A stretch of DNA of 27,467 nucleotides, taken from IMG/VR virus record IMGVR_UViG_3300048575_000466, positions 1 through 27,467 of that record, one strand, 5' to 3'. The stretch comes from a virus (Duplodnaviria > Caudoviricetes). This document shows positions 19,792 to 23,349 of this stretch, one piece after another (positions within the stretch are counted from its first letter, which is position 1; the number at the start of each line of letters is the position of its first letter). The notes beneath the pieces were generated by a model, which was not told the DNA's origin, did not search any database, and saw nothing but the letters and a program-made list of their open reading frames with translations. The position numbers and the translations under genes were made by a program.

Positions 19792-21348
19792 CTAGTCTTC
19801 GTCAGCAATCAATATTTTTTCAGCATCGTCAGGTGCTTTAGAAAATGATGTATTGAACGACTCAAGTTCTAGAACTGGAGCTGAGCGTAATCTATCTTTT
19901 GCAGAATCTGTTGACAAATCAATCTCATTAAATTTCCCTTGTAGCTTTCTGAGGTGTGCATAACAGCCTATGTTAATTGAAAACGCTTGATAGGTTCCTT
20001 CTTTTGATTTGTGGGTGAGCGCAGTTGCGGCGGTATGTATTATTCTGTAATCAAGAAGTCGGTATATTACTTTCCGAAAGCTATCGTTTTGCTGCAAAAT
20101 TCTTTCTGAAATTAGAAAAGCATTTGTCTGCTTGTCTAAACAGAATTCTCTTATGACGTATATTGCCTTTATAAGTGGCTCTTGTTCTGTAACTTCTGAA
20201 TCATGTTTCAGTTCTTGAATTAAATGCTCAAAATTTGATTTGCTTAAAATTCTTACGTCATCCTTGCCAATTCTTCCGTCACTATATTGTTGAACATTAC
20301 TCAAAACTTCTAAAAAAAGCGACAGAGTGTCGCGCGGAACTCCACCTCCAGCCAAGACAAGCCGGTCAAACCCTTCTCCCTTAAACAAGTTGTCAAGTGC
20401 ATCTTTCTTTATTCCCGCGAGGTTGCCAAATTCATGAAAAATCCTTCTGTTTTTTTCTCGTGTCTTGCGAAAATCTTCAAAGGTGTAGTCAATGTTTATT
20501 GGTTGATAGTCATGGCGTTCCTGTGCCCCGATTGGTTGTCCGCCATGGTCAGAATACAGAATTGACACATGTCTAAGCGTAGCCAGCTTGAAAAAGATCG
20601 GTACATCTTTGCAAAGGCGGTGTACATAATCAACAACAAAGGGCTGGTCTTCTTGTCGAAGATGATAAAGGTCATCAATTTGTAAGAACAGGGTCTTGAC
20701 AGACGAAGAAATTTCAAAAAAATCTCTTAATTGCTGTTTAAGTCTTGGGAGCCATAAGTTAATTTCTCGAATTTTATTCTCTTTTATTGTATATTGTTTT
20801 TCAACATCTTCTTTTTGTTTATCTGTGCAGCTAAGGCTTCCCTTCGCTCCCGCACCGCTTCCTGAAGAATATGAAAGGTCAGCACCAGCGTTAAGACTGC
20901 TTTCAGCAGAAGAAAATGTTTTAATAGCAGATTCTGTAAAGTCGTCTCTTTGGCGTAACGCGTTAAGATCCTGCCGTATATTGATAATTAATTCTTTGAG
21001 GCGACGTTTTTTTCCAAACCATCCTTTTAGGTGCTTCTCAAGCTCACCAAATAGCGCGTCGAATATCTCGATCAAAACATTTGGGAAAGAATGGTGCTTG
21101 AAATCTTCACAATTTAGATAAACAGATTCCTTGTCTTTAGACAAATGCCTGGAGGAATATTGCAATAATAAAGTTTTTCCACAGCCACGACGCGCAAAAA
21201 TAACGTGATTCTGGCGCGCGCTAATATCACTGACTTCAGTTCCACTATCTATATAGGTGACGTTTTCTGCACTTCCACGCTGAACTCGTAAGTTCTCTTG
21301 AATGGCATTGCGAAGCTCAGCATATTTGTCTATAATTTTTGGAGCCAT
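19792..21348 (-). CDS. P-loop ATPase (ORC/Cdc6- or STAND-like), 518 aa, AT-rich moron
   Basis: Walker A variant VIFARRGCGKT, Walker B LFLQIDD, downstream AGGGVPRD motif; GAGGA 4 nt before ATG 21348; 20/60 GC in a sampled line. Confidence 0.85.
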   Translation of the reverse strand: MAPKIIDKYAELRNAIQENLRVQRGSAENVTYIDSGTEVSDISARQNHVIFARRGCGKTLLLQYSSRHLSKDKESVYLNCEDFKHHSFPNVLIEIFDALFGELEKHLKGWFGKKRRLKELIINIRQDLNALRQRDDFTESAIKTFSSAESSLNAGADLSYSSGSGAGAKGSLSCTDKQKEDVEKQYTIKENKIREINLWLPRLKQQLRDFFEISSSVKTLFLQIDDLYHLRQEDQPFVVDYVHRLCKDVPIFFKLATLRHVSILYSDHGGQPIGAQERHDYQPINIDYTFEDFRKTREKNRRIFHEFGNLAGIKKDALDNLFKGEGFDRLVLAGGGVPRDTLSLFLEVLSNVQQYSDGRIGKDDVRILSKSNFEHLIQELKHDSEVTEQEPLIKAIYVIREFCLDKQTNAFLISERILQQNDSFRKVIYRLLDYRIIHTAATALTHKSKEGTYQAFSINIGCYAHLRKLQGKFNEIDLSTDSAKDRLRSAPVLELESFNTSFSKAPDDAEKILIADED

Positions 21349-21391
21349 ACATTCCTCATATTTCAAGCTAATTACCTAAAATACGGCATCT

Positions 21392-21420: not shown

Positions 21421-21489
21421 GCTTGTGTATGCTTTTGGCGATAGAAAGGCCGTTAGACCTCCGTTAAAATCCATCCTCCCCCTTTCCCC

Positions 21490-21972
21490 CTAGCCTCGCC
21501 CCGCCAGCACCCTTTGCAGCGATTCTAACGCCGTTCCCTCGATTTCCGCCTCATCCGCCGGCCCCACCCCGAAAAACCGCCGGGCCGGAATATCCCCCCA
21601 AGGAATCGGCATCCCGCGCCGGGTGCTGCCGTACTGGCCTTTCCTGGCTCCGAACTGGTGGGTGGCGGCCTTCACGTCGGCCGTTCCCACCCGTGCGAAG
21701 TCCGGGCCGGCCTCGCTATGGATGGAGCCGGCCAGGATGCCGCTGACCTGCAAGAGGGGCTGGGCGCTGCCGCGCTTGGCGACCGTCGCCGGCGACAAGG
21801 CCGCCCAGGGCTCCCCGGTGACCGGGTCGGACTGGCTGGCGAAGGCGCGCTCCGGGATGTCGGCCAGCACGCCGGCCAGGGCGCGGGTCACGGGCGTCAT
21901 GTTGCGGCCGGTGGCGATGATGTTGGCCAGCAGGTTTTGCGCCTGGTCGATATGGACTTCGATCTCGATCAT
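21490..21972 (-). CDS. Virion morphogenesis protein, Mu gpG-like, 160 aa
   Basis: DPVTGEPWAALSPAT, LQVSGILAGSI, AATHQFG, IPARRFFG; ATG 21972 with AAGGA upstream. Confidence 0.92.
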   Translation of the reverse strand: MIEIEVHIDQAQNLLANIIATGRNMTPVTRALAGVLADIPERAFASQSDPVTGEPWAALSPATVAKRGSAQPLLQVSGILAGSIHSEAGPDFARVGTADVKAATHQFGARKGQYGSTRRGMPIPWGDIPARRFFGVGPADEAEIEGTALESLQRVLAGRG

Positions 21973-21987
21973 GCTTATTTCATCCTT

Positions 21988-22090
21988 GTGGATGCGACAC
22001 GGTGACACTCTCCCTGCCGTAGCACGGGCAGCCGCCCGGAGCGCCATGCGAGGTTTCCGCGAAAAGCGGGTGGGAGGCCTCGCCATCCAC
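21988..22090 (-). ncRNA. Candidate structured ncRNA between the MuF gene and gpG
   Basis: Closing stem GUGGAUG/CAUCCAC, three internal arms, and a CUCCC/GGGAG loop-loop complement. Confidence 0.6.
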
Positions 22091-22096
22091 GGTTCA

Positions 22097-22123
22097 AAGC
22101 GCCCCGTGTCTCACGGGGCGCTT
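22097..22123. terminator. Perfect 12-bp hairpin over the MuF stop codon (terminator or processing signal)
   Basis: AAGCGCCCCGTG-TCT-CACGGGGCGCTT; only a short U tract on the minus strand. Confidence 0.5.
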
Positions 22124-23349
22124 CGCTTTTTCAGCCGTCGCAATTCCCGCTCCCGCTTGGCCGCGTCGCCGCTCAGGCGCACCACGCTTTGCACGAAGAG
22201 CGCGTCCCCTTCCACGGTCGCCTTCACCACGACCAGCACGCCGCCGGGCCGATCCAGCACGTAATCCAGCTTCCGCGCGCTTTCCTGCACCCGTTCGCCA
22301 TGGTCCACGGCTTCCTGGACCAGCCGGTAATCCTCGGGGCCAAGCTCCTGGTGCCGCGCCGCCTGCTTGCCGGCCGTCTGCGGCGAGAGCCGGGCCACTT
22401 GCGAGCGTGCGCCGATAAGCCCGGCATCCTCGGCTGGCAGCACGGCTAACGGAAAGTTGCCCACGGGCTTGGCCAGCCACTGGCCCAGCACCGGCCCGCG
22501 CGTCATTTCCCCTACGGCCGCCCGCGCCAGGTCCGCCGGCGCGGCGTCGAGCTTGCGCGTCAGCTCGTCCAGCGCCCCGCCCAGCCAGGACGCGCCCGCA
22601 TTGCCGGAGAAGCCGGCGTCGGTGAAGGCCACGTGGCCGGACTGCGGAACCTTGTAGCCCGTGACCGGCTGCGTGAGCCGCTGCCCGTCGGCGGCGGGCA
22701 CGGTCACTTGCTCCGTGACCATGTGGCCCACGCCGGATTCCGGGCTGACCTTTTCCGCCTCCAGCCGAGAATCCGAAAGCGCCCGCACCCGACAGCGGCA
22801 GTTGAAGCCGTTGGGCGGATAATGCGAACTCCAAAAGGGATCGTCGAAACGGAAGGTGCGGCCGGAAAGGATTTTGTGGGACGGCCGCGTCTTGCCGTCC
22901 AGCACGGCCACATACTGCCACCAGGGCCGGGCGTCGGCGTTTTCGAGCATGGCCTTGTAGCGGCCGGCCATGAAGGCGGTTTGCAGGTTCTGCCGGTAAA
23001 TCAGCCGCAGCCGGGCCGGGCTGCCGAGCTGGACCTTCCGCTCCTCGCCGGTGCGGGGATCGACCATGGACGCCTTGCCCCACCAGCCCTTGGCCCGCAG
23101 CTTCGGCAGCAAGTCCTTGCGAAACCAGGCTTCGGTCTTGCCCTCGGCCAGGGCGGTCTTGAGCGCGGCGCGGATGTCGGCCAGCACGTCCAGGCCCGCC
23201 GCCTTGGCCACGGTGAACGCCTGCGCATGGGCGGCCTGGTCCAGCTCGTGCCAATTGAAAGTGATTTTGTAGCCCTTGGCCTCGAAATAGGCCACGGCAT
23301 CGGCGGGCGGCAGGCCCAGGGCGAAGGACAGGGAAACGGGCGCGGGCAT
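22111..23349 (-). CDS. Minor head protein MuF (gp30-like) with C-terminal putative PBECR-type RNase domain, 412 aa
   Basis: AFTVAK, RLRLIYRQNLQTAFMAGRY, WQYVAVLDGKTRPSH, FWSSHYPPNGFNCRCRV; roughly 120-aa C-terminal extension (domain call is inference). Confidence 0.9.
   Translation of the reverse strand: MPAPVSLSFALGLPPADAVAYFEAKGYKITFNWHELDQAAHAQAFTVAKAAGLDVLADIRAALKTALAEGKTEAWFRKDLLPKLRAKGWWGKASMVDPRTGEERKVQLGSPARLRLIYRQNLQTAFMAGRYKAMLENADARPWWQYVAVLDGKTRPSHKILSGRTFRFDDPFWSSHYPPNGFNCRCRVRALSDSRLEAEKVSPESGVGHMVTEQVTVPAADGQRLTQPVTGYKVPQSGHVAFTDAGFSGNAGASWLGGALDELTRKLDAAPADLARAAVGEMTRGPVLGQWLAKPVGNFPLAVLPAEDAGLIGARSQVARLSPQTAGKQAARHQELGPEDYRLVQEAVDHGERVQESARKLDYVLDRPGGVLVVVKATVEGDALFVQSVVRLSGDAAKRERELRRLKKRSAP

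Follow-up and report, generated by a model that had tools for sequence, protein, structure and literature searches.

The locus raises the question of what takes the place of an immunity gene behind a MuF gene with a toxin-type C-terminus. The window, i.e., the whole stretch of 27,467 nucleotides analysed, is a record of a Mu-like phage, in which portal, gpF, gpG, gpI and gpT were identified by Pfam, tail genes too, and in which the late genes lie on the minus strand. The MuF (gpF) minor head protein of 412 aa (22111..23349, minus strand; PF04233, E 1.6e-23) belongs to phrog_220, annotated as minor head protein and DNA pilot; its Phage_Mu_F domain covers aa 58-188, a predicted RNase-fold domain forms the C-terminus, and the names of close relatives point to Desulfovibrionaceae. 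The neighbouring gene outside the module is the tail-completion gene gpG (21490..21972, minus strand; PF05069, Phage_tail_S, E 1e-31) with its ATG at 21972. Between the MuF end at 22111 and this start lies a gap of 138 nt (21973-22110), the length given in the original prediction. MuF polymorphic toxins, encoded in the head module of temperate phages, join a MuF N-terminus to a C-terminal toxin domain that varies, and the immunity determinant follows directly downstream; a small protein ORF was present there in 89.4 % of 191 toxin genes (Jamet et al. 2017, PMC5576092). The window shares the head-module MuF whose toxin-type C-terminal domain varies and, by our reading, may share a downstream immunity determinant, but a small protein immunity ORF directly downstream is absent; unlike in these toxins, a predicted non-coding RNA takes this place, probably encoded on the other strand and with a promoter of its own. 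A small-protein immunity gene in the gap was considered as a candidate and rejected, in agreement with the earlier claim that the gap holds no immunity-like ORF: the ORFs crossing it lacked frame conservation, none was conserved, and the element lengths spread over the three frames (39/29/34 of 102).

The last 129 aa of MuF (aa 284-412; 22114..22500, minus strand) are predicted to be a PBECR3-like BECR domain, based on invariant residues, an AlphaFold model and fold matches. K328 (22366-22368), H333 (22351-22353), Y341 and S388 (22186-22188) were invariant in 39 of 39 aligned sequences. The AlphaFold model (pLDDT 95) consists of two helices, H40-49 and H55-67, followed by four strands, a topology that fits the N-terminal helix and the sheet of 4-5 strands of BECR/PBECR. 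Best fold matches were BrnT (Z 6.3, rmsd 3.0, 75 aligned), CdiA-CT of E. coli NC101 (6.2), the colicin D tRNase (5.3) and RelE-type toxins. The Z-scores of the model are middling, 6.3 at best, yet the matches agree: the best 12 VIA fold rows (Z 6.3-4.3) were RelE/BrnT/CdiA/colicin D-type toxin entries. Foldseek yielded no match for the domain at E ≤0.001. PF18812 (PBECR3) matched eight of 39 members below the cut-off, the best with E 3.8e-5, and gave no match to the window's own domain, which we regard on sequence grounds as PBECR3-like, yet as a separate subfamily below the Pfam cut-offs. The invariant H333 and S388 fit the PBECR layout of a His plus a Ser/Thr (Iyer et al. 2017, PMC5512222). 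Neither a Pfam match nor a fold row connected the domain to the ToxN/CptN/TenpN family; the best rows were BECR. Together, the model, the fold matches and the weak PBECR3 matches bear out the prediction that the MuF extension has a BECR/PBECR-type RNase fold. The domain profile matched 1310 clusters (50 % identity, E up to 0.001), while tblastn against cultured phages was without a match and no laboratory phage with the exact subfamily was found.

In the gap, a predicted small RNA of the tRNA cloverleaf type extends over 21988..22090 of the plus strand, according to an MFE fold, covariation and the model R2 (90.7 bits on this strand). Read on the plus strand, an acceptor-like stem (5' arm 21988..21994, partner 22084-22090; double-sided changes in six of seven pairs) is followed by a D-like arm (21999..22020; stem 21999-22002/22017-22020) with CUCCC (22010-22014) in its covarying loop, a variable anticodon-position arm (22022..22042; hairpin 22025-22038 and pairs 22022-22042 and 22023-22041; double-sided changes in six of seven pairs), a 5-nt linker and a covarying T-like arm (22048..22083; stem 22048-22053/22078-22083) stacked on the acceptor stem. 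The T-like loop contains an optional hairpin (22057-22069) and GGGAG (22072-22076), and the contact of D-loop and T-loop is a 5-bp covarying helix. Every helix of the originally predicted fold was found again at its coordinates; that fold had overlooked the two covarying pairs which extend the anticodon-position hairpin (22022-22023 with 22041-22042).

A lone 103-mer folded no better than shuffled sequences (z -1.1 on the minus and -1.3 on the plus strand); the support for the RNA is therefore comparative. A pattern scan of viral contigs yielded 111 loci. In 88 distinct aligned viral copies the helices were paired in 97.4 % of the cells, and the covariation score was 0.366 against 0.118 in shuffles, none of 500 reaching the observed value, with slid controls at 0.064 or less; the RNA covaries, as the original prediction expected of homologues. 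A broader set of 102 copies, hand-picked from viral and GTDB loci, had 95.5 % of the cells paired and a covariation of 0.432 versus 0.128. The loop-loop pair was U-A in 70 and C-G in 18 of the 88 viral copies. Among 67 model-aligned copies, from loci partly chosen as variants and with the best of five registers used, the loop-loop helix was complete in 64 (shuffles: mean 41.9, maximum 49), and recoded helices exist, e.g., CUAGC/GCUAG and CUGCC/GGCAG. The invariance of the D-like stem carries no information, because this stem was fixed by the search pattern. The RNA element is real. A further helix, pairing alignment columns 55-60 with 124-129 on the MuF strand, was dropped because its G·U pairs become A·C on the likely strand and it only matched shuffles. 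Rfam 15 had no match at the gathering threshold in the window, only partial terminator-like matches with E above 1, so no existing Rfam family explains the RNA, as the original prediction had left to be checked.

The closest RNA shapes are tRNA (RF00005) and tRNA-like RNAs, e.g., YrlA. With tRNA the window RNA shares the cloverleaf topology, a contact between D-loop and T-loop, and the stacking of the T-like arm on the acceptor. Unlike in tRNA, the elbow is a 5-bp Watson-Crick helix, and a CCA, the T-loop consensus and a fixed anticodon loop are missing: CCA stood close to the 3' end in just 10 of 102 copies, a 7-nt anticodon loop was not present in the family, and the sequence of the anticodon-position arm varied freely among the copies. 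ARAGORN made no call for the RNA family of the window.

The strand was deduced from the non-canonical cells. Read in the MuF sense, A·C occurred 41 times versus 13 times for G·U, and 32 versus 3 times once three terminal pairs and three poorly aligned rows were removed; such an A·C excess corresponds to G·U on the opposite strand and thus points to a reading on the plus strand. Just before the first helix on this strand, a TAnnnT hexamer was present in 49 of 91 copies (sense control 2/86), and a TA with TTG 16-18 nt upstream in 49 of 91 copies (sense control 0/86). The window has a weak match to a sigma70-like promoter (21953..21981, plus strand; -35 TGGACT at 21953-21958, 17 nt, -10 TATTTC at 21976-21981), recognized by sequence reading and the family pattern; the consensus scan did not list this weak version, which overlaps the gpG start. 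An intrinsic-terminator-like hairpin with U-tract lies 3' of the RNA and overlaps the MuF end (22097..22131, plus strand); it was overlooked in the original prediction and found in some relatives only. As judged from sequence features, the RNA most likely reads on the plus strand, opposite to MuF, and the sense-strand reading first proposed did not stand. In that form, a pseudoknotted antitoxin would be cut from the late mRNA on the MuF strand; the Watson-Crick covariation, equal on both strands, would allow for it, but the A·C excess, a promoter pattern confined to the other strand and tRNA T-arms of sister RNAs on that same strand make it the least probable of the readings considered. In one metatranscriptome, a 269-nt contig of depth 4 spanned 21936-22199; the expression data are assembled contigs (21 runs listed, 4 examined), which carry neither strand nor ends.

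The convergent layout would also fit another function: as a cis-antisense regulator, the RNA would lower the synthesis of the toxic protein in a type I-like manner, by pairing with the late mRNA or by extending into MuF. The overlap of the promoter with the gpG start would suit such a regulator, as would the many copies that end at the MuF stop without a terminator. For antisense pairing, however, conservation of a tertiary fold and of a covarying loop-loop helix would be unnecessary, and orphan copies exist without an adjacent target; we consider this function improbable.

The RNA follows the C-terminal domain and not gpG, as expected for a partner of the domain in the original prediction. 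Linkage and gap counts are raw counts over related loci, with many genomes incomplete: the domain preceded the RNA directly in 80 of 88 distinct viral loci that had enough upstream DNA and were found by the DNA pattern alone, and the RNA was carried by 23 of 24 loci found by the protein profile. In the 24th, L349, reading by eye showed a promoter followed by another type of cloverleaf. The gene after the RNA was gpG in 26, gpI in 12 and another gene in 14 of 52 cases. Among 151 genomes, all from one class (presumably the first of 401, as inferred from their numbering), 20 had the RNA; 12 had both, none the toxin only and eight the RNA only. Two exceptions were observed, L052 with the RNA kept behind a degenerate domain and L042 with an RNA of the window family behind a PBECR2 domain. 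In L215, MuF-domain genes are repeated with an RNA copy at each repeat. In L044:2060-2540 and L348, the toxin gene and the window-family RNA are separated by additional structured non-coding DNA, which has complementary loops of its own and is perhaps a second RNA type.

To look beyond this subfamily, 107 complete MuF proteins were clustered to 64 representatives. Four frameshifted pieces and L379, which has another toxin type followed by a 101-aa ORF, were dropped, and the remaining 59 were sorted by eye and Pfam into 41 intact, 9 degenerate and 9 short MuFs. For the 48 with a gpG match, a gap of at least 60 nt preceded gpG in 32 of 32 intact-domain MuFs versus one of 16 short or degenerate ones, mostly confirming the prediction that the RNA slot is missing after short MuF genes. 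L140, an exception, has a short MuF, a gap of 92-98 nt (L140:3286-3380) and a high promoter-plus-helix score. At a threshold of 10, this score was reached by 35 of 41 intact MuFs versus 4 of 18 others; at 9 the classes were not separated (36/41 versus 12/18, p 0.07). The gaps of the PBECR2, PBECR3 and MuF_C types hold unrelated sequences that, by eye, mostly close stems behind a promoter opposite to MuF, and several of these sister RNAs show tRNA T-arms on that strand, also read by eye; the gap of L377 was ambiguous in this reading. The sister RNA of L352, on the strand opposite to MuF, scored 35.6 bits to Rfam tRNA (cut-off 29), the only match in an Rfam scan of 16 sister-RNA loci. A blastn of the sister RNAs against all loci found close relatives only and missed a likeness of L150 and L269, which covered 26-27 nt only in pairwise blastn. 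Behind MuF-PBECR2 of L363, L365, L355, L360, L364 and L362, a second conserved convergent RNA family, 71-83 % alike, was observed, specific to PBECR2 MuFs.

Closely related loci differed in domain and RNA together. In L075 and L134, the N-termini are 93 % and gpG 96 % identical, with both domain and RNA replaced; for the pair L177/L194 (90 % and 98 % identical), L194 is without the His and without the RNA. The gpF of L352:1330-2740, related to that of phage Mu (85 % in the N-terminal part), has the His segment intact and a convergent RNA; Mu has neither, and its F and G genes overlap. In Mu, D108, DMS3 and MP22, the F and G genes abut or overlap. The toxin without RNA was never seen, the RNA was often alone, and both were swapped and lost jointly, therefore the pattern is the one predicted for an antitoxin. 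The phi29 pRNA is the model for a virion or packaging cofactor, in which loop-loop pairs would join copies of the RNA. The position in the head module and the complementary loops are compatible with such a role, but the same head genes occur without the RNA in Mu, D108, DMS3, MP22 and short-MuF phages, and the RNA exists as chromosomal orphan, hence a packaging function is very improbable.

Orphan copies were frequent. A GTDB scan, with 79 loci searched by the model out of 121 returned of an estimated ~260 stretches, gave 81 model matches, 31 adjoining the domain and 50 not. In 43 of 45 genomes with orphan RNA there was no domain match, many of these genomes being incomplete. Neighbours of the orphans were type IIG restriction enzymes, a SIR2 protein, integrases, other prophage sites and housekeeping genes. 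A PADLOC match or a CRISPR array was present within 2 kb in about 10 of 45 orphan loci, a value without background rate and with 65 of 116 ORFs near orphans as PADLOC input, so that the vicinity of defence genes is a lead only. The RNA may instead serve the phage as a weapon against host defence: it would be a decoy for tRNA-cutting effectors of the host such as anticodon nucleases, and the PBECR domain would mature or partner it without being blocked by it. Its tRNA shape and the persistence of orphans without the domain fit this function, an autonomous role would likewise explain the 50 of 81 matches away from the domain, and PBECRs were suggested to target mRNA or CRISPR RNA rather than tRNA (Iyer et al. 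2017, PMC5512222). Against it stand the switch of the RNA family along with that of the domain family and the one-sided occurrence, with RNA lacking a toxin common and the reverse not seen; also, orphans beside host restriction, CRISPR and housekeeping genes suit a protection of the host better, although a background rate is missing here as well. We regard the anti-defence decoy as unlikely.

Several loci had more than one copy. The paired copies in L203:1854-2085 and L225:1783-2037 differ in their loop-loop code, with recoded loop helices in tandem; L203 has a promoter-like site at each copy, and L395 and L397 are tandem as well. In L227:1944-2269, beside a HipA-like gene, two RNA copies alternate with a tRNA that ARAGORN calls tRNA-Pro and that is near-canonical but has an odd anticodon arm. 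An orphan copy around 1500-2700 of L393 lies about 550 nt from a CRISPR-like repeat array. At the contig start of Desulfatitalea alkaliphila (L269:270-2030), 1.9 kb of largely non-coding DNA adjoin a CRISPR array and contain several promoter-led small RNAs, namely two window-family copies and two cloverleafs similar to the L150 partner, together with further repeated elements; by its sequence the stretch looks like an orphan RNA immunity array.

Drawing on the fold, the conserved residues, the RNA structure, the linkage, the joint swap and loss and the orphan copies, we consider it fairly probable that the RNA is a tRNA-mimic immunity gene which would neutralise a virion-delivered BECR RNase. 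Colicin D and CdiA-CT, the closest folds, cut tRNA, and the domain may thus cut host tRNA; a tRNA-shaped RNA would suit it since the fold family includes tRNases. The cloverleaf RNA would act as a decoy that binds the RNase; it is likely transcribed on the opposite strand from a host-type promoter of its own, which would make it available in lysogens and as soon as the phage DNA has entered a cell. As the anticodon-position arm varies freely, the enzyme may grip the elbow and core of the RNA and not this arm. Considering the phrog_220 annotation and the MuF/PBECR literature (PMC5576092, PMC5512222), the predicted MuF BECR RNase domain probably travels inside the phage head into the next cell. 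Protection would extend to lysogens and to cells whose phage DNA survives, a cell that receives the protein yet destroys the phage DNA would be poisoned, and hosts and other elements might keep orphan copies as acquired immunity. Extended to all types, this becomes a tentative picture that may well be wrong: Mu-like phages would inject a tRNA-cutting RNase with a DNA-encoded, tRNA-derived RNA under a host-type promoter as only antidote, so that genome-destroying cells are poisoned and lysogens immune, bacteria would stockpile orphan RNAs of several specificities by restriction and CRISPR loci, and each PBECR family would have its own tRNA-mimic RNA, forming a polymorphic toxin system with RNA immunity genes.

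To our knowledge, the immunity factors described for polymorphic toxins are proteins. The full-text literature searched, which covers few subscription journals or supplements, had no paper pairing MuF or PBECR with an RNA, and such a pairing was not found in the parts of Weinberg 2017 that were covered. A BECR preprint (10.64898/2026.08.28.747851) presents protein immunity only in the part covered. The account of PBECR2, PBECR3 and MuF_C (PMC5512222) mentions, in the sections considered, no RNA partner or immunity factor, whereas the window has a candidate RNA partner. The motifs DNAVirus_1035 and DNAVirus_615 (Fremin et al. 2023, PMC10690425), with 76 nt, 139 sequences and a distance of at most 25 nt to gpG 33 times, overlap each other on opposite strands, and their host range (Desulfovibrionaceae, Rhodobacteraceae, Rhodocyclaceae) overlaps that of the window RNA; compared by listed features, not alignments, they are probably the motif of the window. 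They are listed with no assigned function and as possibly cis-regulatory, and the entries considered contain no link to MuF, a nuclease or a tRNA shape (PMC10690425).

Like type III ToxIN/CptIN/TenpIN and AbiF, the window may present a protein RNase neutralised by a structured RNA. ToxIN, CptIN and TenpIN are arranged as one operon with promoter, tandem RNA repeats, terminator and then the toxin, the ToxIN-type RNAs being tandem pseudoknot repeats (PMC12283969); the AbiF RNA consists of abiF motifs (bioRxiv 10.1101/2025.04.15.648962), and both RNAs are tied to the operon of the toxin. The window RNA is instead a single, tRNA-shaped copy behind the toxin gene, convergent and likely on the opposite strand, its family has orphan copies, and the BECR toxin is fused to a virion protein. 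In place of the likeness to a ToxI-type pseudoknot drawn in the original prediction, the RNA folds as one cloverleaf, most probably encoded on the other strand and with its own promoter. By the features compared, the system belongs neither to the MuF toxin-immunity pairs nor to the classical type III systems; the wider system of RNase and tRNA-like RNA likely works as a blend of both. If true, such an immunity gene, an RNA of tRNA ancestry, would neutralise a nuclease in a new manner and give tRNA-like RNAs a new role, and would explain PBECR-bearing MuF genes without an immunity ORF as well as the dead copy of phage Mu. The set of 1310 clusters would then be a large natural source of matched RNase/RNA pairs for RNA-protein specificity, and the system a direct way to test what virion-borne PBECR domains do.

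Further downstream in the window, an AT-rich gene for an ORC/CDC6-like AAA ATPase of 524 aa (19792-21366, minus strand), which had no match in PADLOC or PHROG, is inserted between gpG and gpI. Two promoter-like sites are located near this gene on the plus strand, at 21308-21336 and 21442-21470.
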